Of a stretch of 10,524 nucleotides of DNA, positions 1-10,524 are shown in pieces. The notes beneath the pieces are model-generated. The model ran no database searches, was not told where the DNA came from, and worked only from the letters and a program-made list of their open reading frames with translations. The translations under genes and the position numbers were made by a program. Position 1 is the first letter of the stretch. Each line of letters opens with the position of its first letter. Source of the stretch: a virus. Taxonomy: Duplodnaviria > Heunggongvirae > Uroviricota > Caudoviricetes. The stretch lies in the IMG/VR virus record IMGVR_UViG_2609459794_000002, positions 1 through 10,524 of that record. One strand, given 5' to 3'.

Positions 1-2
1 TG

Positions 3-83
3 GTATTTGGCCTGCTGACGTACCTGACAAACCTTTATTTCAAGATTAAAGAAGATAAGCGCAAGGCTGCGAGAGGTGAATAA
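3..83 (+). CDS. Holin, C-terminal fragment (5' end lies outside the window)
   Basis: Frame-3 translation [26 protein letters not shown] ends at TAA 81-83, overlapping the endolysin ATG (TAATG). The hydrophobic-then-charged tail matches the phage 21 S / DLP12 EssD holin C-terminus as I recall it. Confidence 0.55.
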
Positions 84-580
84 TGCCTCCATCATTACGA
101 AAAGCCGTTGCTGCTGCTATTGGTGGCGGAGCAATTGCTATAGCATCAGTGTTAATCACTGGCTCAAGTGGTAACGATGGTCTGGAGGGTGTCAGCTACA
201 TACCATACAAAGATATTGTTGGTGTATGGACTGTATGTCACGGGCATACAGGAAAAGACATCATGCTCGGTAAAACGTATACCAAAGCAGAATGCAAAGC
301 ACTCTTGAATAAAGACCTTGCCACTGTCGCCAGACAAATTAACCCGTACATCAAAGTCGATATACCGGAAACAACGCGCGGCGCTCTTTACTCGTTCGTC
401 TACAACGTGGGTGCTGGCAATTTCAGAACATCGACGCTTCTTCGCAAAATAAACCAGGGTGATATTAAAGGCGCATGTGATCAGCTACGGCGCTGGACAT
501 ACGCTGGCGGTAATCAATGGAAAGGACTGATGACTCGCCGTGAGATTGAGCGTGAAGTCTGTTTGTGGGGGAAACAATGA
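83..580 (+). CDS. R: SAR endolysin (T4-lysozyme-like muramidase, phage 21 R / RrrD-like)
   Basis: 165 aa with a Gly/Ala-rich weakly hydrophobic N-terminus ([20 protein letters not shown]) typical of a signal-anchor-release domain. The catalytic E-x8-D-x5-T spacing is present ([17 protein letters not shown]). It sits between holin and Rz. Confidence 0.9.
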
Positions 581-1035
581 GCAGAGTAACCGCGATTATC
601 TCCGCTCTGGTTATCTGCATCATCGTCTGCCTGTCATTGGCTGTTAATCATTACCGTGATAACGCAATCGCCTACAAGGAGCAGCGCGATAACAAGGCCA
701 GTGAACTGGAGAAGGCGAACGCCACCATCGCTGACATGCGGAAGCGTCAACGTGATGTAGCAGAACTCGACGCAAGATACACAAAGGAGCTTGCTGATGC
801 TAACGCGACTATCGAAAGTCTCCGTGCTGATGTTTCTGCTGGGCGTAAGCGCCTGCAAGTCGCCGCCACCTGTGCAAAGTCAACGACCGGAGCCAGCGGC
901 ATGGGCGATGGAGAAAGCCCAGGACTTACAGCAGATGCTGAACTCAATTATTACCGTCTCCGAAGTGGAATCGACAAGATAACCGCGCAGGTTAACTACC
1001 TGCAGGAATACATCAGGACGCAATGCCTGAAATAA
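577..1035 (+). CDS. Rz: Rz i-spanin
   Basis: ATG 577-579 overlaps the endolysin stop (ATGA); the ORF track starts at GTG 565 but the ATG is more likely. N-terminal TM helix ([20 protein letters not shown]) followed by a coiled-coil-like periplasmic region, in the classic position after R. Confidence 0.85.
791..982 (+). CDS. Rz1: Rz1 o-spanin lipoprotein, embedded in +1 frame inside Rz
   Basis: Small ORF wholly inside Rz in another frame. Signal peptide with lipobox-like VSAC followed by a proline-rich mature region ([16 protein letters not shown]). True start may be the second Met at 797. Confidence 0.7.
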
Positions 1036-1068
1036 TTTTTTTGCAAATCACAAAGTCCATTTAATGAG

Positions 1069-1121
1069 CCTCGCGATGCGGGGCTTTTTGCAATAAATGC
1101 GTACCGCAACGCATGTTTTTT
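1069..1121 (+). terminator. Two tandem terminator-like hairpins downstream of Rz
   Basis: Hairpin 1: CCTCGC-GAT-GCGGGG (1069-1083, one G-T wobble) followed by CTTTTT. Hairpin 2: ATGCGT-ACCGCA-ACGCAT (1097-1114, perfect 6-bp stem) followed by GTTTTTT. Confidence 0.4.
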
Positions 1122-1236
1122 ACACCGAACCTGCCCCTTTGGAATGGGCCTTTGAGGATACCAGTTAGTGCTGGCGAGCCTCGGTGGGCTGGTTTCCTGT
1201 GCGGCAAAGGTTCATTTCAAAGAGTAGGTACACGCT

Positions 1237-1734
1237 ATGAAATCATTAACCCTCTTCAATCAAGCAATTCGTATCGGTGAAGATGGCATGATCTGCCTCA
1301 CTGATATGTGGAAAGCCAGTGGTAAAAGTGAATCTGAATCGCCTTACCACTACCTGCGAAACAAGCAGACCAAAGAGTTCTTAGCCGAGCTGGAGAAAAA
1401 CCACGAATCTGTGGTTTTTACTGAGCGCGGTGTACACGGTGGAACATATGGCGGGAAGTTTGTTGCTTACGATTATGCGGCTTGGTTAAACCCCGGATTT
1501 AAATATGCAGCCTATAAAGTCCTGGATGACTACTTCACCGGAGAACTTCAGCATCGCAACAGCTTAAGTGCACAGCTCAATATGAAGTGTCATGAGTTTG
1601 ATCAGAAAAAAGATATGGCGAGCTTCTGCGGACAAGGGCTGGCGGCATGGCGCTATACGAAGCCAGTGTTGGTCGCTGAGATTAACTCCCTGGCTAACCA
1701 GCTGCAGATTACGATCCCCGGGCTTCCGGGATGA
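1237..1734 (+). CDS. KilA-N domain-like protein (phage antirepressor-type DNA-binding domain)
   Basis: 165 aa. The N-terminus IRIGEDGMICLTDMWKASGKSESESPYHYLRNKQTKEFLAELEK fits the KilA-N/APSES pattern (IR..DG...T.m.KA.GK....wlr...t.efl). Upstream AGGT Shine-Dalgarno-like motif. Confidence 0.6.
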   Translation: MKSLTLFNQAIRIGEDGMICLTDMWKASGKSESESPYHYLRNKQTKEFLAELEKNHESVVFTERGVHGGTYGGKFVAYDYAAWLNPGFKYAAYKVLDDYFTGELQHRNSLSAQLNMKCHEFDQKKDMASFCGQGLAAWRYTKPVLVAEINSLANQLQITIPGLPG

Positions 1735-1988
1735 GTGATCGTGTCATTGAATGCGCCTCCAGAGCGGGGCGTGACTTCTCAGAGTTCATGAAAGGTGAGA
1801 AGGGCATGATGGAAGCATTGTCCTCGGTGGATGAGTTTGGCGAGCAGCTGCGCCTCAACGGCTGTGTCAATCATCACTTTGTTAGCTACATGATGCGGAA
1901 CTCGATCATGCAGGCATTCATGGACATGGCAAAAGCCGAGAGGAAAGAAGAGCGCCGGCGTAAGCGAGCGGAAGCAAAAGCGAAGTAG
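1731..1988 (+). CDS. Hypothetical protein, start overlaps the KilA-N stop (ATGA)
   Basis: 85-aa ORF with a strongly charged Lys/Arg/Glu C-terminus. The ATGA overlap suggests translational coupling. No family recognised. Confidence 0.45.
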   Translation: MSDRVIECASRAGRDFSEFMKGEKGMMEALSSVDEFGEQLRLNGCVNHHFVSYMMRNSIMQAFMDMAKAERKEERRRKRAEAKAK

Positions 1989-2274
1989 CCATTACAAAGC
2001 CTATCTACGGGTGGGCTTGATAATGGCTTATACCCTACACGGGATAACTTAACTGATATCCCTTTTAAAGGATAAAGGTATTCAAGCCTGACACATCATG
2101 CGCTGTATCGTCGCCGTATTCCCGTATTAACAGAGACCGTAGCCCGACGGGGAACTCCTTCTGCGCGAGTGTGTGGGAATAATCAAAAACGATGCACACC
2201 GGGGTTACCGGGTACACATATTTCATCATGCCAGCGAGTCCGGTTCTGGCACGGAAGAAACCGGACGTTATGAT

Positions 2275-2685
2275 TTAGTGCGGAAATATTTGTGTAGTGT
2301 TCTGAATGTTCTCAGTAAAGAGTAATGAATTATCAAAGGTATAGTAATACCTTTTGTTTTCGTGGATATTTGTAATCCATCTGAAAACCCCTGCAGTAGC
2401 AAGATTTTTCCTGTATTCGTAAAATGATAACTCTCCTGATTTGAATCCTTTTAAGGTGGCTTCTATAAGGCATTTATTTTTTGAAAATCTTACATTTACA
2501 ACCTTACCCTGTCCTTTTATTAAAACCGTATTATCGTTTTCAAGAACAAGATGAATATTCTCTGTAGCTAAATAGTAAATGTAATGTGAGACATTGTGAC
2601 GTTTTAGTTCAGAATAAAACCAGTGATAGTTTAAATTATTTCGCACTTTATCGAATATTTGTTTAAAAATGGCAACCTGAGCCAT
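2275..2685 (-). CDS. AT-rich hypothetical protein, YdfO/YbcV-like (DUF1398-like, from memory), function unknown
   Basis: Minus-strand ORF. The ORF track starts at 2700, but the Met at 2685 (MAQVAIF...) has a GGAAGG Shine-Dalgarno-like motif about 9 nt upstream, giving 136 aa. The coding DNA is visibly AT-rich (roughly one-third GC by eye) compared with the flanking lambda-like DNA. Confidence 0.65.
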
Positions 2686-2741
2686 TGTAGTACCTTCCAT
2701 GTGATATGAGGGGCGTAGTCTGCACGATTATCTAAATTGCT

Positions 2742-2975
2742 TCAATCTGGTCTGATCTGTTTTCTGAGCAATTCAGTAATGTCACTCTTTTCTTTGTTTG
2801 CTTCAGGAGAAACTCTTTTTTCTGAGCACAGTCTCCGGCGGCAGGCTTCAATGACCCAGGCTGAGAAATTCCCGGACCCTTTTTGATCAAGAGCGATGTT
2901 AATTTGTTCAATCATTTGGTTAGGAAAGCGGATGTTGCGGATTGTTGTTCTGCGGGTTCTGTTCTTCGTTGACAT
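2742..2975 (-). CDS. Small ribbon-helix-helix (Arc/CopG-like) DNA-binding protein, YnfO/YlcI-like
   Basis: 77 aa. TTIRNIRFPNQMIEQINIALDQKGSGNFSAWVIEACRRRL fits a beta-strand / helix / G-x-S turn / helix RHH layout. It lies immediately upstream of, and on the same strand as, the AT-rich 136-aa gene. Confidence 0.6.
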   Translation of the reverse strand: MSTKNRTRRTTIRNIRFPNQMIEQINIALDQKGSGNFSAWVIEACRRRLCSEKRVSPEANKEKSDITELLRKQIRPD

Positions 2976-3119
2976 GAGGTTGTCCCGTATTCAGTGTCGC
3001 TGATTTGTATTGTCTGAAGTTGTTTTTACGTTAAGTTGATGCAGATCAATTAATATGATACCTGCGTCATAATTGATTATTTGACGTGGTTTGATGGCGT
3101 AGATGCACGTTGTGACATG

Positions 3120-3363
3120 CAGATGATAATTATTATCATTTTGCGGGTCCTTTCCGGCGATCCGACAGGTTACGGGGCGGCGACCTCGCGGGTTTTCGCT
3201 ATTTATGAAAATTTTCCGGTTTAAGGCGTTTCCGTTCTTCTTCGCCGTAACTTAATGTTTTTATTTAAAACACCCCCTGAAAAGAAAGGAAACGACAGGT
3301 GCTGAAAACGGGCTTTTTGGCCTCTGTCGTTTCCTTTCTCTGTTTTTGTCCGTGGAATGAACA
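3120..3363. other. cos: Lambda-type cos site (cosQ-cosN-cosB), with the cosN 12-nt cohesive-end sequence GGGCGGCGACCT at 3175-3186
   Basis: The sequence ...GATCCGACAGGTTACG|GGGCGGCGACCT|CGCGGGTTTTCGCTATTTATGAAAATTTTCCGG... matches the lambda right-end/left-end junction as I recall it. Nu1 starts about 190 bp downstream, as in lambda. Confidence 0.8.
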
Positions 3364-3883
3364 ATGGAAGTCAACAAAAAGCAGCTGGCTGACATTTTCG
3401 GTGCGAGTATCCGTACCATTCAGAACTGGCAGGAGCAGGGAATGCCCGTTCTGCGAGGCGGTGGGAAGGGTAATGAGGTGCTTTATGACTCTGCCACCGT
3501 CATAAAATGGTATGCCGAAAGGGATGCTGAAATTGAGAACGAAAAGCTGCGCCGGGAGGTTGAAGAACTGCGGCAGGCCAGCGAGACAGATCTGCAGCCA
3601 GGGACTATTGAGTACGAACGCCATCGACTTACGCGTGCGCAGGCCGACGCACAGGAGCTGAAGAATGCCAGAGACTCCGCTGAAGTGGTGGAAACCGCAT
3701 TCTGTACTTTCGTGCTGTCGCGGATCGCAGGTGAAATTGCCAGTATTCTCGACGGGATCCCCCTGTCGGTGCAGCGGCGTTTTCCGGAACTGGAAAACCG
3801 ACATGTTGATTTCCTGAAACGGGATATCATCAAAGCCATGAACAAAGCAGCCGCGCTGGATGAACTGATACCGGGGTTGCTGA

Positions 3884-3909
<26 letters not shown>
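3364..3909 (+). CDS. nu1: Terminase small subunit Nu1
   Basis: 181 aa, MEVNKKQLADIFGASIRTIQNWQEQGMPVLRGGGKGNEVLYDS..., near-identical to lambda gpNu1 as recalled, with the N-terminal winged-HTH region. Lambda-like overlap with A. Confidence 0.95.
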
Positions 3910-6890
<2,981 letters not shown>

Positions 6891-6966
6891 AACCCTTGCT
6901 GCGTCTGGAATGTCGTTTTCCATGCTTTTGATGACCGTTCATCACCCTTCCAGTTTTTCGCGGTTT

Positions 6967-7020
6967 TGTGTATTGCAATGTGTATTGCAAATTGGCGATC
7001 GGGATGGGTGTGTATTGCAA
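6967..7020 (+). repeat. Three direct copies of TGTGTATTGCAA (6967-6978, 6979-6990, 7009-7020) immediately upstream of the integrase gene
   Basis: Read directly: two perfect tandem 12-mers plus a third copy 18 bp downstream, ending 18 bp before the int ATG. Confidence 0.85.
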
Positions 7021-7038
7021 ATCTCTTGAGGGCTTTTA

Positions 7039-8280
7039 ATGGCTATTGAAAACAAACTCAGTGACAAACTGTTAAAGAGTCTTGTCGGAAAACGGCAGGA
7101 CAAACAAAAAACAATAGCGGATGGGCGCGGGTTGTCTGTGCGTGTAAGCATGGTTGGGGGGATCAGCTTTGTTTTTTACTATCGTCTTGGTGGCAGGGAA
7201 TCCCCTCCGGTATGGCTTACACTTGGTCGCTATCCTGACATGTCTCTTGCAACGGCCAGGCGCATGCGTGATCAGTGCCGTGAATGGCTGGCTGAAAATC
7301 TGGACCCCCGCAGGCAAATAAAACTTGCTGCCGAAAAAACTATGCAACCAGTGACCGTAAGGGATGCGCTGTTTTACTGGTACGACAATCACGCCACAAC
7401 AGCCAGAAAAGAGCATGAATATTTAATAAAACGATTTGAAAAGCATATCTTCCCCTATATCGGTGATATGGCTATAGAACAGTGCAAATTACACACATGG
7501 CTTACCGTCTTTGACAGGATCAAAAAAAATGCGCCTGTTATGTCTGGTGCAATTTTTCTTGATATCAAACAGGCGTTGCGTTTTTGTCGCGTCAGGCAAT
7601 ACATCGCGTGCGATCCCTTTGGAGATATTAACGTAAGTTATGTCGGGCGCTCATCCGGTATAAGGGATCGCGTTCTTAATATCAATGAAACCGCTGATGT
7701 ATGGTCTTATGCTTACGGTAATAATTTGCTAACTCTGTCATCAATATATAACCGAAGAATAATGGTTATCTGCCTGGTGTTTGGTTGCCGACAGCAGGAG
7801 GCGAGGCTATCCACCTGGGACGAATGGGATTTAAAAAACTGGGTATGGACAGTCCCAAAAGAGCACAGCAAAAACAAGGAGGCTATAGTAAGGCCTGTTC
7901 CTGACGGAATAAAACAATGGATCGTTAATCTTTACGCAGAAACAAAAAATCGCGGTTATGTTGTCGGTTGTGCTTTGCAAAGGGCGACAATAACAGGGGC
8001 TGCAAACAGAATATGCAGGCGTCTTGGTCATGATACTAATGGCTTGTGGTGCATACATGATTTCAGGCGCACATTTTCCACTACGCTTAATGATATGGGG
8101 GCGGATCCTTATATTGTCGAACTTCTTTTAGGTCATAAAGTGAAAGGGGTTGCTGGTGTTTACAATAAAAGCAGGCATATAAAGAAAAAACTTGAGGTGC
8201 TTAATATGTGGGTTAATTACCTTAATACGATAGCAGGATTTAACAACAACGTTATCGAGCTTAATAAAGAGGTGGTGTGA
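7039..8280 (+). CDS. int: Tyrosine recombinase / phage integrase (P4-like family)
   Basis: 413 aa. N-terminal arm-binding-like region (IADGRGLSVRV...FVFYYRLGGRE...LTLGRYPDMSLATARRMRDQ...LDP). C-terminal catalytic signatures: IHDFRRT (His-x-x-Arg), LLGH, and a Tyr in GVYNKS. GAGGG Shine-Dalgarno 7 nt upstream. Confidence 0.9.
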   Translation: MAIENKLSDKLLKSLVGKRQDKQKTIADGRGLSVRVSMVGGISFVFYYRLGGRESPPVWLTLGRYPDMSLATARRMRDQCREWLAENLDPRRQIKLAAEKTMQPVTVRDALFYWYDNHATTARKEHEYLIKRFEKHIFPYIGDMAIEQCKLHTWLTVFDRIKKNAPVMSGAIFLDIKQALRFCRVRQYIACDPFGDINVSYVGRSSGIRDRVLNINETADVWSYAYGNNLLTLSSIYNRRIMVICLVFGCRQQEARLSTWDEWDLKNWVWTVPKEHSKNKEAIVRPVPDGIKQWIVNLYAETKNRGYVVGCALQRATITGAANRICRRLGHDTNGLWCIHDFRRTFSTTLNDMGADPYIVELLLGHKVKGVAGVYNKSRHIKKKLEVLNMWVNYLNTIAGFNNNVIELNKEVV

Positions 8281-8281
8281 T

Positions 8282-8539
8282 ATGGCAATTTATTCTCTTG
8301 TTGATGAAAACGATTTGCGCACAATGAAGGACATTGATCGGTTCATTCGTGAAAAAGAGTGCATAGCACTTACCACGCTGGCAAACTCAACACGCTGGAA
8401 AATGGAGCAGGCAGGTAAATTCCCGCGACGTATCAAGATCGGTGAACGTGCTGCAGGGTATCGACTTTCAGAGGTTCAGGCATGGATCCGTGGTGAGTGG
8501 CATCCTGGGTGGAAACCTGGAAAAACAAAACAGCAATAA
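8282..8539 (+). CDS. alpA: AlpA-family transcriptional regulator / excisionase-like protein
   Basis: 85 aa starting 1 nt after the int stop. LANSTRWKMEQAGKFPRRIKIGERAAGYRLSEVQAWIR fits the AlpA / MerR-like excisionase HTH pattern. Confidence 0.75.
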   Translation: MAIYSLVDENDLRTMKDIDRFIREKECIALTTLANSTRWKMEQAGKFPRRIKIGERAAGYRLSEVQAWIRGEWHPGWKPGKTKQQ

Positions 8540-8552
8540 CCAGTAAATAATG

Positions 8553-8575
8553 CCCCTCATCACGAGGGGTTTTTT
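8553..8575 (+). terminator. Rho-independent terminator after alpA
   Basis: Perfect hairpin CCCCTC-ATCAC-GAGGGG (8553-8569) followed by TTTTTT. Confidence 0.7.
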
Positions 8576-8595
8576 GTCTATAAGGTAAAAACGCG

Positions 8596-9174
8596 ATGAA
8601 TAAAAATATTGCCGTGACGGGCAAGGGGTACGCTCGTCCAGTGAAAAAATTCTGCGATATTCGTGATCTCGTCGTTCTGCGCTTTGATAGTGTGAACGTT
8701 CGTGTGGTGTATCTGAACGGCGATCCGTGGTTTGTTGCAAAAGATGTTTGTGCTGCGCTGGAACTAACCAATTCGCGTACGGCGTTGCAGATGCTTGATG
8801 ATGATGAAAAGGGAGTAAATTTAACTTACACCCCAGGAGGAAATCAGAATATGAGAATTATCTCTGAGTCAGGTTTCTACAAACTAATAGCCCGCAGCCG
8901 CAAAGCAACGACGCCTGGCACATTTGCTCATCGTTTCAGTAACTGGGTATTCAGAAATGTGATACCAGGTATCAGAAAAACGGGGACTTATGGTATCCCG
9001 TGGGGTGCATTACAGGTTTTTCCCCGCCGTAAAGAGCAATATCAAATAAGTGCCAGCGAGAAGGGGAGGGAGCTACAGGCATGTAAGCGCAAAAAGCGTG
9101 AGCTGGAGGAAGAAGAAAAAACGCTGATACGTGAATATCAGCCTGAGTTTTACTTTGGTAACCGCATTCAGTGA
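8596..9174 (+). CDS. Bro-N domain protein (phage antirepressor-like)
   Basis: 192 aa. DPWFVAKDVCAALELTNSRTALQMLDDDEKG...RIISESGFYKLIARSRKATTPGTFAHRFSNWVFRNVIPGIRKTGTY fits the Bro-N consensus. The C-terminus is charged and coiled-coil-like (KRKKRELEEEEKTLIRE). Confidence 0.8.
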   Translation: MNKNIAVTGKGYARPVKKFCDIRDLVVLRFDSVNVRVVYLNGDPWFVAKDVCAALELTNSRTALQMLDDDEKGVNLTYTPGGNQNMRIISESGFYKLIARSRKATTPGTFAHRFSNWVFRNVIPGIRKTGTYGIPWGALQVFPRRKEQYQISASEKGRELQACKRKKRELEEEEKTLIREYQPEFYFGNRIQ

Positions 9175-9203
9175 CAAAACAAAGGCGACCGCAAAAGGGT
9201 CGC
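9174..9203 (-). terminator. Terminator-like hairpin between convergent genes, oriented for the minus-strand transcript
   Basis: Perfect 7-bp stem GGCGACC / GGTCGCC with a 7-nt loop (9183-9203). On the minus strand it is followed by TTTGTTTTG. It lies between the Bro-N stop and the stop of the minus-strand 59-aa ORF. Confidence 0.45.
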
Positions 9204-9270
9204 CAGTGGGAACAAGGGAAAACAAAAGCATCACCAACAATGCCACATTTGCGGCTGGTGGGCAATGTGA

Positions 9271-9450
9271 TCAGTCAGATTTGGTTCGTTCCAAGGTTTG
9301 CAACGAGAGCTTTTTCCTGTGCTCTTTAAGGAATTTCTCAAGAGCAAACGAACAAGGTGCGAATCTTTCTGATTCATGTTCATGCGCTATATTTTTGCGT
9401 CGTCTCTTACGAGTTGGTGATGGTGTTTTGGTTGATTCTGTGTCGCTCAT
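9271..9450 (-). CDS. Small highly basic hypothetical protein (59 aa), not in the supplied ORF track
   Basis: Hand translation of the minus strand: MSDTESTKTPSPTRKRRRKNIAHEHESERFAPCSFALEKFLKEHRKKLSLQTLERTKSD. AGGA 8 nt upstream of the ATG. Lies 57 nt downstream of the 101-aa gene on the same strand and is followed by the convergent hairpin. Confidence 0.4.
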   Translation of the reverse strand: MSDTESTKTPSPTRKRRRKNIAHEHESERFAPCSFALEKFLKEHRKKLSLQTLERTKSD

Positions 9451-9507
9451 GGTGCTGTCCTGTAAAGCAATGCGCCTGCGTTCCTCAAACTATGGCGCTG
9501 ATATTGG

Positions 9508-9813
9508 CTATTCATGCTCTTTGACCTTGCGTCGCTGGAGTTCTTCACGCGCGACGGTGACGAGTTGCCCGATCTCCTCGGCTGCTTTGATGCCGATTTG
9601 TTCGACCTTAGCCAGGGCATCCAGTGACGACACAAGGGGATTTTCTCCGCTGCCTTCTGCTTGGCGGCGGGCTATTTCTCCGCGCATGGCGGTTACGATA
9701 AATCCGGCATTGCTTTCACCGTCCAGCTTAACGGATTCCATCCCTTGCATAACATCTAGTGGGACTCTGACAGTTGTCAGTTGTGATTTTGCGTTTTTGT
9801 TAGCCGTTGCCAT
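9508..9813 (-). CDS. Hypothetical regulator with an RHH-like N-terminus (101 aa)
   Basis: GGAG Shine-Dalgarno 9 nt upstream of the ATG. TTVRVPLDVMQGMESVKLDGESNAGFIVTAMRGEIARR resembles a ribbon-helix-helix fold. Transcribed divergently from the operator region. Confidence 0.55.
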   Translation of the reverse strand: MATANKNAKSQLTTVRVPLDVMQGMESVKLDGESNAGFIVTAMRGEIARRQAEGSGENPLVSSLDALAKVEQIGIKAAEEIGQLVTVAREELQRRKVKEHE

Positions 9814-9834
9814 TTCTGAAACTCCTAATCATCG

Positions 9835-9912
9835 GTGTGTTTCAGTATACACAAAAAAAGAAATACAAAAAGCCTTGACGTGTGTTTCATGCGCTCATAA
9901 CATGAAACACAC
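9835..9912. promoter_or_regulatory. Divergent promoter/operator region: perfect 12-bp inverted repeat with 9-bp spacer (9880-9912), a third half-site at 9836-9845, and candidate -35/-10 elements
   Basis: GTGTGTTTCATG (9880-9891) and CATGAAACACAC (9901-9912) form the palindrome. TTGACG (9875-9880) with a 17-bp spacer to TAACAT (9898-9903) is a candidate plus-strand promoter overlapped by the palindrome. The minus strand has a TATACT -10-like hexamer next to the third half-site. Confidence 0.55.
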
Positions 9913-10003
9913 CGAAAGGATTGTTGAAATACAAAGAGCAACGCCCCGCAGTGCTGGGAACACATACGGGGCGTCTAACCAACAACGTAAACTAGGAGCC
10001 GTT

Positions 10004-10177
10004 ATGGTTGCTGTAAATCATATACCACACCTTGTACACACACAAACGGCCTTTGTGTGGCGTTTTCTGGCACTGAGTGCCGGAGAATCTCAAATCATCC
10101 ACGTAACCGCCTGGACGGAACGCGAAGCGCGTAGCCGTTGCCCGTCCGGTTGTGTTGCTGTATTCGCTGCAAAAATC
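10004..10177 (+). pseudogene. 5' part of an unknown gene, apparently interrupted by the IS1 insertion
   Basis: ATG at 10004 preceded by AGGAG with a 5-nt spacer. The ORF (MVAVNHIPHLVHTQTAFVWRFLALSAGESQIIHVTAWTEREARSRCPSGCVAVFAAKI) runs straight into the IS1 terminal inverted repeat at 10178. Confidence 0.4.
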
Positions 10178-10524
10178 GGTAATGACTCCAACTTATTGAT
10201 AGTGTTTTATGTTCAGATAATGCCCGATGACTTTGTCATGCAGCTCCACCGATTTTGAGAACGACAGCGACTTCCGTCCCAGCCGTGCCAGGTGCTGCCT
10301 CAGATTCAGGTTATGCCGCTCAATTCGCTGCGTATATCGCTTGCTGATTACGTGCAGCTTTCCCTTCAGGCGGGATTCATACAGCGGCCAGCCATCCGTC
10401 ATCCATATCACCACGTCAAAGGGTGACAGCAGGCTCATAAGACGCCCCAGCGTCGCCATAGTGCGTTCACCGAATACGTGCGCAACAACCGTCTTCCGGA
10501 GCCTGTCATACGCGTAAAACAGCC
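10178..10524 (-). mobile_element. IS1 insertion sequence, partial (right end inward; continues past the window edge)
   Basis: Begins with the IS1 terminal inverted repeat GGTAATGACTCCAACTTATTGATAGTG. The minus-strand translation is the InsB C-terminus (...[109 protein letters not shown]). Confidence 0.9.
10193..10524 (-). CDS. insB: IS1 transposase InsB, C-terminal part (N-terminus outside the window)
   Basis: The minus-strand frame is continuous from the window edge through the track ORF 10193..10459. Sequence recognised as IS1 InsB. Confidence 0.8.

Follow-up and report, generated by a model that had tools for sequence, protein, structure and literature searches.

A leftward pair of genes, for an RHH-like and a small basic protein, antisense to an eta-like open frame in a Gram-negative PICI within a prophage portal gene

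Introduction

PICIs embedded in the portal genes of prophages have already been described (Mageeney et al. 2023, PMC10111431), and the global repressor of Gram-negative PICIs was called unclear in a 2018 paper (Fillol-Salom et al., PMC6092414). For phage P4, control by nested genes is described. According to Forti et al. 1999, as presented in PMC10111431, the P4 left operon contains the nested frames eta and kil, the promoters PLE and PLL, and an immunity system based on the cI RNA. As presented there, transcripts from the internal promoter PLE are translated into kil alone, translation of eta requires transcripts from the late promoter upstream, and this translation of eta prevents premature termination. 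Here we analyzed a copy of a Gram-negative PICI with a leftward pair of small genes and, opposite to them, a long open frame that resembles eta.

Results

A satellite island in a prophage portal gene

The window, by which we mean the whole stretch of 10,524 nucleotides analyzed (positions 1 to 10,524 of the IMG/VR record IMGVR_UViG_2609459794_000002), is the late region of a lambdoid prophage, and its portal gene carries a PICI that is itself cut by IS1. The prophage genes follow in the order lysis genes, nu1, large terminase gene, W and portal gene, the last of which is broken off at about position 6850. The left island junction therefore lies within the window, between this portal end and the start of int at 7039. 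The following features frame the region under study:

7039 to 8280, tyrosine integrase gene (int)
8282 to 8539, gene for the AlpA regulator
8596 to 9174, plus strand, Bro-N gene (Pfam Bro-N, E = 5e-20)
10004 to 10177, plus strand, Icd-like ORF of the P4 Kil family (NF033153), cut by IS1 24 nt before its natural stop
from 10178, IS1, adjoining the truncated Icd-like ORF

An identical but uninterrupted island is present in E. coli APEC O2-211, where primase, SSB, capsid, decoration and small-terminase genes lie beyond the Icd-like ORF and the island terminates in the second half of the portal gene. Locus L001 holds the full island (int, alpA, Bro-N, Icd-like, primase, capsid and small terminase genes) with portal halves on both sides, and there the Icd-like ORF is annotated intact. 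With its int-alpA-Bro-replication-late order, and its insertion in a prophage late gene with which it is co-oriented, the island conforms to what defines helper-embedded PICIs. The element is a capsid-encoding Gram-negative PICI inside the portal gene of a helper prophage.

The leftward gene pair

Adjacent to the Bro-N gene, the minus strand carries two small ORFs and their presumed signals:

9508 to 9813, minus strand, 101-aa RHH-like gene of the YlcI/YnfO family with a long C-terminal helix, proposed island repressor (profiles, AlphaFold2, omega)
9451 to 9507, minus strand, 57-nt intergenic spacer with a GC-rich hairpin, GCGCC...GGCGC, at 9472 to 9498 (sequence, folding)
9458 to 9461, minus strand, AGGA as ribosome-binding motif, 7 nt in front of the ATG of the 59-aa gene (sequence)
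9271 to 9450, minus strand, gene for a 59-aa basic helical protein, second in the leftward operon (conservation, omega, phrog_21027)
9174 to 9204, minus strand, intrinsic terminator of the leftward operon (hairpin 9184 to 9204, T-run 9174 to 9183), abutting the Bro-N stop codon
9123 to 9142, second terminator-like hairpin inside the Bro-N 3' end, scored on both strands

An earlier note, made from the letters of the window, had described a hairpin and T-run behind the 59-aa ORF on its own strand, and both were found here: the hairpin reads GGCGACCC-TTTTGC-GGTCGCC at 9204 to 9184 on the minus strand and is followed by TTTGTTTTGT, with a folding energy of -15.1 kcal/mol (z = -3.0). Behind the small ORF, 154 of 161 loci have a terminator-like hairpin with a T-run, the stems being of several unrelated sequences. 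Because it has no T-run on the plus strand, the leftward terminator should not stop plus-strand transcription. In 161 of 163 loci the small gene shares its frame with an RHH-type gene and follows it at a distance of exactly 57 nt; the energy of the spacer hairpin by itself is not significant against shuffles (z = -0.4). The conserved spacing and terminator support the view, already taken in the note, that the two genes form one unit; as a transcription unit it consists of the RHH-type gene, the 57 nt, the small gene and the terminator.

Two other arrangements were rejected. Stop read-through from the RHH gene into the 59-aa ORF, which lies in the same frame 19 codons away, is contradicted by a second in-frame stop in the spacer of many alleles, including that of the window. 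A minus-strand ORF at 9231 to 9383 (50 aa), which overlaps the 59-aa ORF, is conserved as an ORF, but omega in its frame is about 1 and it was not accepted as a gene.

Selection acts on the minus-strand frames

Omega was about 0.28 for the RHH gene and about 0.30 for the small ORF, versus about 1 in the four frames that are not phase-locked. The long plus-strand frame is wobble-aligned with both minus genes and has an omega of 0.37-0.38 of its own. We therefore separated the two frames by classing each change in both frames at once; substitutions were counted along the edges of minimum spanning trees of recombining sequences, and all such counts are approximate. In the RHH gene, changes that are silent on the minus strand and non-synonymous on the plus strand occurred at 2.1-3.1 per possible mutation, versus 1.0-1.4 for the reverse class (P = 1.1e-6). 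The corresponding values in the core of the small ORF were 4.5 and 0.95 (P = 0.0014). The whole small ORF gave the same contrast (P = 0.044), and selection on its N-terminal part is weak. These classes therefore point to amino-acid selection on the minus frames and not on the product of the plus frame. Judged by the substitution pattern, both minus-strand ORFs are protein-coding genes under purifying selection, in agreement with the earlier placement of the real coding content on this strand.

A lack of conservation in related elements had been named beforehand as a possible refutation of the minus-strand genes. The 59-aa ORF was found intact, with ATG and AGGA conserved, in about 160 related loci and in essentially all of the 84 distinct DNA versions; the loci were drawn from metagenomes and from viral contigs, and annotated copies of E. 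coli were added. Aligned as proteins, the distinct ORF versions have only in-frame indels.

The two small proteins

The 101-aa protein matches NCBIfam NF041551 (YlcI/YnfO) with 63.3 bits over residues 9-50, the curated cutoff being 30, and phrog_6522 with E = 1.5e-64. It has 216 homologues across Enterobacterales, and a prophage paralogue is encoded within the window at 2742-2975. In the identical island of APEC O2-211, RefSeq annotates the gene as WP_000179580.1. The AlphaFold2 model (pLDDT 77.6) places helices at residues 19-28, 35-52 and 59-100, so that an extended segment is followed by two short helices and a 40-residue helix. Matches of the protein and its family to Pfam Arc and to PSK_trans_fac, an RHH antitoxin family, are weak and sub-threshold, those to PSK_trans_fac being seen in 17 of 24 members. 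With hhalign, the alignment to Arc has the correct register and E = 0.0045, but a probability of 8%. Foldseek found no match for the monomer model in the PDB, and a PDB sequence-profile search with both small proteins returned nothing meaningful. The strand-helix-helix pattern and the marginal Arc match suggest an RHH-like protein, as the note had read it, and a possible member of the ribbon-helix-helix (RHH) superfamily. For YlcI/YnfO (NF041551), our literature search found no published function.

The 59-aa product was described beforehand as Lys/Arg-rich, and indeed it has 15 K+R versus 9 D+E and a pI of 10.0, and includes TRKRRRKN. The AGGA motif that had been reported upstream of its gene is present and is kept in an alignment of nine E. 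coli loci. AlphaFold2 predicts two helices, 12-29 and 31-58, with moderate confidence (pLDDT 69). Database homologues number 29 and are 48-72 aa long, and the core ER-F/Y-x-PC-x-F-x-LE-x-FLK (ERF-APC-F-LE-FLKE) is nearly invariant. The N-terminal Arg-rich patch is not kept in the most distant homologue, P0153, where a patch is found at the C-terminus.

Homology searches and structure prediction, which the note had proposed for both proteins, placed the 101-aa protein in a family; the 59-aa protein was matched only to phrog_21027, whose function is unassigned (E = 5.2e-15; a 66-aa allele reached E = 7.8e-32). No relative of known function was found for it in Pfam, NCBIfam, PHROG, PADLOC and PDB-profile searches, and tblastn against phage genomes gave no match. 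A profile search of 1.84 billion proteins returned a narrow enterobacterial group only, with 10 clusters at 50% identity and no distant relatives; a 1141-aa repeat protein in this search was dismissed as a chance match. The DNA of the 59-aa ORF is present in 1744 of 5426 complete E. coli genomes. RefSeq leaves the ORF unannotated in the identical APEC O2-211 island, and other alleles are annotated as hypothetical proteins, e.g., WP_157918692.1. RHH relatives in Xenorhabdus, Photorhabdus, Enterobacter, Serratia and Pantoea occur without the 59-aa protein, and because of these relatives in five other genera we do not consider it essential to the module. As a best guess, we take this basic, helical protein for an accessory factor expressed along with the RHH gene, namely a cofactor that binds nucleic acids or modulates the repressor.

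Candidate operators over divergent promoters

The note had the gene pair read from a palindromic operator region. We found there a divergent promoter region with repeated candidate operators, in which the half-site GTGTGTTTCA occurs in three copies overlapping both promoters:

9832 to 9844, candidate operator copy O1 (TCGGTGTGTTTCA), at the presumed RHH transcript start
9844 to 9849, minus strand, probable -10 (TATACT) of the leftward RHH promoter, with a weak -35; inferred from sequence, not scored by the scan
9875 to 9903, plus strand, predicted rightward promoter TTGACG, 17 nt, TAACAT for the Icd-like/replication operon, counterpart of P4 PLE
9880 to 9912, candidate operator palindrome O2/O3: GTGTGTTTCATG at 9880-9891, 9 nt, CATGAAACACAC at 9901-9912
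9941 to 9974, plus strand, conserved leader hairpin of the Icd-like mRNA (-18.4 kcal/mol, z = -2.5)

The O2/O3 palindrome (z = -4.4 as a palindrome) sits against the -35 hexamer of the rightward promoter, occupies its spacer and overlaps its -10. This architecture, in which one half-site lies where the leftward transcript starts, another adjoins a -35-like hexamer and an inverted one lies over the -10, was seen in 15 of 16 loci; the exception, L002, has its own palindrome in a different layout. In 15 of the 16, the half-site directly follows the -35-like hexamer (TTGAC in 13, TTGAA or TTGCA in two). The leftward -10 is TATACT in six loci, TATATT or TATAAT in five, and degenerate or absent in the other five. 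Across the 16 loci the half-site sequence co-varies with the RHH type, as defined by its N-terminal strand, and the promoter architecture stays fixed:

N-terminal strand QLTTVRVP, half-site GTGTGTTTCA
N-terminal strand QSLTARIP, half-site TGTAAG
N-terminal strand QTVAARVP, half-site GTGTTCAACAC
N-terminal strand QQLNARFP, half-site GTGCGATTCA
Arc-like RHH type, half-site GGTAATTACC

Such co-variation within a fixed architecture supports, but does not prove, that the RHH protein binds these operators, represses the rightward operon and regulates its own gene. Since the presumed operators overlap both promoters and co-vary with the RHH type, the 101-aa protein is likely to be the island repressor, with promoters, operators and role all inferred.

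The leader hairpin was judged by reading the locus sequences. It is found in most loci of all genera compared, and both sides of its stem vary (ACGCCCCG/CGGGGCGT vs AAGCCCGG/CCGGGCCT).

The long plus-strand frame is kept open

Opposite both minus genes runs a single plus-strand frame:

9131 to 10258, plus strand, long open frame, eta-like, 375 codons as read into IS1; its 3' end is the Icd-like ORF

The native form of this frame stops at the equivalent of 10201. Its GTG (9131) overlaps the last 44 nt of the Bro-N gene, and it shares its frame with the Icd-like ORF. In all 155 complete loci, which give 136 distinct translations, the plus frame over the small ORF is open, with a minimum of 207, a median of 359 and a maximum of 607 codons, versus medians of 43 and 18 codons in the other two antisense frames. 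The chance of such a long frame arising from composition is about 3e-8. Measured from the stop of the co-directional gene in front of it, the first start codon lies at -44 to +57 nt. In 122 loci the frame continues into the Icd-like ORF as a fusion, and where it does not, 24 of 32 long frames end within 25 nt (mostly 19-25) of the Icd-like start.

We also looked at loci of other genera, found via the RHH protein alone and devoid of a 59-aa homologue. Among the 12 with a full RHH gene, the long frame is open in nine, over 286-426 codons; the exceptions are one locus with masked bases and two (L009 and L013) without a long open frame. In these genera the frame crosses 150-700 nt that contain no minus-strand ORF and are of ordinary base composition. 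They are not poor in A, and A-poor composition was thereby ruled out as the cause of the open frame. Within the RHH gene, mutations that are silent for the RHH protein and create a stop in the plus frame were observed once, versus 14.8 expected (P ~6e-6). The small ORF allows only 0.5 such mutations. No amino-acid constraint was detected on the plus frame, as minus-silent, plus-replacing changes are almost as fast as doubly silent ones.

The note had called the 375-aa ORF almost certainly spurious. This stands insofar as its product is unconstrained, but not for the frame itself: judged by its preservation in every complete locus and by the avoidance of stops, the long plus frame is kept open by selection and is not simply spurious.

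Comparison of the Icd-like ORF and its surroundings with P4

The eta ORF of P4 has 214 codons (8168-8812), of which the last 65 make up kil, and it shares 49 nt with the end of vis. NF033153 scores P4 Kil with 76.1 bits and the Icd-like ORF of the window with 63.7 bits, and the link between the two rests only on this shared NCBIfam profile. BLAST of the Icd-like protein matched one induced prophage and not P4. P4 itself scores for the C4, isrK and c4-a1b1 RNAs, all three; none of them was found at E <= 10 in the window or at gathering score in 20 related loci. The Rfam scan of the window, at gathering score and at E <= 10, returned only a chance snoRNA match (E = 1.4).

Discussion

A proposed switch

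The explanation that we consider probable for the locus as a whole is a PICI in a portal gene in which 9174-9850 is a leftward regulatory (repressor) operon with an eta-like plus frame opposite to it. The 101-aa protein would bind the three GTGTGTTTCA sites, two of which form the palindrome over the -35 and -10 of the rightward promoter. This promoter would drive the Icd-like ORF and the replication genes, and the 101-aa protein would repress this rightward operon. By binding the third site, at the transcript start of its own gene, it may also regulate itself. It would thus take the role of the P4 cI RNA and is a candidate for the missing repressor of Gram-negative PICIs. The 59-aa protein may be a helical basic accessory factor that is co-expressed with the repressor.

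The Icd-like frame, in which stops are kept out all the way from the Bro gene's end across the two minus genes and the promoter region, would be translated only on transcripts that initiate upstream, from alpA/bro or by late read-through from the helper. Ribosome cover would prevent premature termination on these transcripts and let them escape the repression exerted at the internal promoter. The transcript of the leftward operon, wholly antisense to the long frame, may add interference. The full form of this proposal is that a frame of 300-600 codons, antisense to two genes, is selected solely for being translated, and that an RHH repressor which shuts the internal promoter is overridden by ribosome-covered, eta-like transcripts, the two together making up the PICI switch. 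This we put forward tentatively, at somewhat under even chances.

Alternative explanations

Two alternatives concern the overlapping frames. The 59-aa ORF might be no gene at all, being the shadow of a real, long Icd-like protein on the plus strand whose codons are phase-locked with it, wobble opposite wobble. The wobble alignment and the low omega of both frames (0.30 and 0.38) fit such a shadow, as do the universally open plus frame and the long Icd-like proteins or pseudogenes that PGAP sometimes annotates across the minus-gene stretch. In the core of the ORF, however, minus-silent, plus-replacing changes are as frequent as doubly silent ones (4.5 vs 4.0), and changes of the reverse class are no commoner than those that are non-synonymous in both frames (0.95 vs 0.86; P = 0.0014). 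The minus-strand ATG, AGGA, 57-nt spacing and downstream terminator are all conserved as well, and the plus-frame translation, rich in Ser, Cys, Leu and Arg, runs straight through a promoter, all of which makes the shadow highly improbable. Conversely, the plus frame might be open by accident, owing to the amino acids that the minus genes happen to encode and, in the short gaps, to chance, and have no function. The part over the small ORF can indeed be such a by-product, given the 0.5 silent stop mutations possible there, and the missing amino-acid constraint on the plus frame agrees with an accident. We nevertheless regard it as unlikely, because the frame is open in every one of the 155 loci while the other antisense frames are short, because it stays open across the gene-free 150-700 nt of other genera whose composition is not A-poor, because RHH-silent stops are avoided (1 vs 14.8), and because it consistently starts at the stop of the upstream gene and joins the Icd-like ORF.

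Two further alternatives give the small protein a different task, and we rank both behind a cofactor of the repressor operon. The pair could be a type II toxin-antitoxin system that stabilizes the island, with the RHH protein as antitoxin and the small protein as toxin. The gene order (RHH gene, then small gene), the presumed autoregulatory operators and the weak PSK_trans_fac matches in 17 of 24 members are in line with this, and the RHH protein's C-terminal tail goes together with the small gene across RHH types, much like a toxin-binding tail. On the other hand, Pfam, NCBIfam and PADLOC matched neither a toxin family nor a defence model, the two genes do not overlap but are separated by 57 nt, and many relatives have the RHH gene without the small gene. 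The position of the candidate operators, on the replication operon's promoter, speaks more for an immunity repressor, and the 59-aa product is predicted to be a soluble helix of high charge that resembles no known toxin fold, so we hold a toxin to be rather improbable. The 59-aa product could also be an RNA-binding termination or antitermination factor with an arginine-rich motif like that of lambda N or HK022 Nun, its target being a hairpin such as that in the 57 nt ahead of its own gene or that in the leader of the Icd-like mRNA; both this function and these targets appear doubtful to us. An RKRRRRK patch does adjoin a helix, the system is organized like that of P4, which is controlled by transcription termination, and the hairpins at 9472-9498 and 9941-9974 are conserved. 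Yet the basic patch is not conserved in position (it is C-terminal in P0153), selection on the N-terminal part is weak, the leader hairpin also occurs in genera that have no 59-aa protein, and no homology to N or Nun was found.

Significance

As a gene pair, the module is ordinary in kind: it is probably a small repressor operon of a mobile element, from families already catalogued but unnamed. It is nevertheless carried by about a third of complete E. coli genomes, with genes that are unnamed, inconsistently annotated and unstudied, and our literature search found no paper that mentions it. Two points raise its interest, namely that the RHH protein is a candidate repressor of a very common satellite family, and the eta-like frame. 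Should the RHH protein be the island repressor, the stated gap in the quiescence of Gram-negative PICIs would be filled, and engineers of PICI-based delivery vehicles would gain a handle. The more unusual object is the eta-like frame that the note had discarded, which is preserved for its openness only and lies antisense to two genes. It is a natural case in which selection preserves an open frame and not the protein, even where the frame overlaps two real genes, and it would be a useful test bed for translation-coupled antitermination. It should also serve as a caution in gene calling, which at present returns "Icd-like" pseudogenes and long fusion proteins at this locus.

Relation to known systems

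The helper-embedded and Gram-negative PICIs described so far (PMC10111431; Fillol-Salom et al. 2018, PMC6092414) have the same order of int, alpA, Bro zone, replication zone and late zone, and are likewise integrated within the prophage portal gene and co-oriented with it. The leftward operon of RHH and small gene is not described in these two papers, and, unlike the islands described there, the copy in the window is disrupted by IS1.

The 101-aa protein has its N-terminal NCBIfam domain in common with YlcI (DLP12) and YnfO (Qin), y-ome proteins of E. coli K-12 prophages. These paralogues from prophages differ in having DUF3950 and in not lying within an antisense frame. The P22 immI repressors Arc and Mnt (ribbon-helix-helix) are small, like the 101-aa protein, and have an N-terminal strand-helix-helix module such as is predicted for it, and Mnt has an added C-terminal oligomerisation helix where the 101-aa protein has its predicted C-terminal helix. 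Arc and Mnt act at repeated half-sites over divergent or overlapping promoters beside antirepressor (Ant/Bro-type) genes, and the layout here is alike, with binding predicted. The sequence similarity to Arc is marginal (the hhalign match given above), however, and the family here is the uncharacterised YlcI/YnfO.

The closest parallel in layout is P4. In both systems a Kil-family ORF (NF033153) is the first gene after the internal promoter and forms the 3' end of a longer frame that begins upstream of this promoter, a primase/replication operon lies downstream, and the long frame overlaps the preceding co-directional gene, by 44 nt here and by 49 nt over vis in P4. The differences lie within the long frame and in its control. 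Whereas P4 eta holds the C4-type cI RNA and its targets, the RHH and 59-aa genes stand here instead, on the opposite strand; the internal promoter carries candidate operators of the protein type, with no isrK/c4-a1b1 (seqA-like) target; and the frame spans 300-600 codons versus 214 in eta. Translation-dependent antitermination is described for P4; for the frame here, whose translation would prevent Rho-dependent termination, the observation is an avoidance of stops without amino-acid constraint. By analogy, the layout matches that of eta and kil minus the cI RNA, and it would be the translation of the long frame, rather than its product, that matters.

Conservation around the small gene

In about 160 loci carrying the 59-aa gene, this gene is conserved as a single block together with the 57-nt spacer and the last 8-10 codons of the RHH gene, whichever RHH type lies upstream (window 9451-9530 for the RHH tail and spacer). 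The C-terminal codons in this block read RRKAKEQE or RGIEPKG. Conservation of tail, spacer and small gene across RHH types argues that the boundary of module recombination lies within the 3' end of the RHH gene.

A further reading frame overlaps the small gene across its 3' half:

9231-9383, minus strand, 50-aa ORF in a different frame from the small gene

Most E. coli alleles keep this ORF open, and omega is about 1 for its frame. Several database 'proteins' (P0002, P0018 and P0022) are frameshift fusions of the 59-aa gene with the 50-aa ORF.

The 59-aa gene is absent from the Xenorhabdus and Photorhabdus relatives (L004-L011, at 300-1000 nt past the RHH gene). These loci contain 580-700 nt of repeat-rich DNA in which the RHH strand carries no ORF but the antisense frame is still open; in the translation of this frame, the motifs SLRSP, GYPIISGWLPN and SLRG recur.

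Just past the stop codon of the small gene, on its downstream side, lies the short motif GCGGCTGGTGGGCAA (9246-9262, plus strand), read as 'AAGGQ' in the plus frame. It was found again in relatives from E. coli, Enterobacter, Serratia and Phytobacter whose surrounding sequence otherwise shows no similarity.

RefSeq calls for the region differ between loci (L002 3807-4400; L019 2005-2409; L021 2101-2505; L020 1492-1822). The plus frame is given in some cases as an 'Icd-like' pseudogene, in others as an Icd-like protein of 134 aa that overlaps the RHH gene, and elsewhere it has no call; only some of the genomes carry an annotation for the small minus-strand gene.

Leader and interruption of the Icd-like ORF

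The following features concern the Icd-like ORF:

9941-9974, plus strand, leader hairpin of the Icd-like mRNA
10178-10524, IS1 end (GGTAATGACTCCAACTTATTGATAG...)
10193-10459, minus strand, InsB C-terminus

The hairpin is kept in most loci from every genus shown. Both sides of its stem vary among loci, the AGTG...AACAC loop is conserved, and CTAACCACCAACG comes after it. No Rfam family matched this hairpin.

IS1 breaks the Icd-like ORF 24 nt ahead of its stop codon and stands between the regulatory region and the replication genes of the island. Because of both effects, the island copy in the window is probably defective.

Prophage context and island insertion

The prophage itself has a second YlcI/YnfO-family gene (2742-2975, minus strand, 77 aa, DUF3950 at E = 5e-21), adjoined by a DUF1398 gene (2275-2700, minus strand). 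Both lie in a low-GC patch (33-41% GC) with lysis genes on one side and packaging genes on the other.

The island splits the prophage portal gene:

6009-7038, portal gene, left junction with the island
5910-6743 and 17626-18408 of L001 (the intact island copy), halves of the portal gene

Only the left junction falls within the window; in L001, the right half follows 11 kb onward. The island is a helper-embedded PICI at the portal site, the location it shares with the helper-embedded PICIs of PMC10111431.
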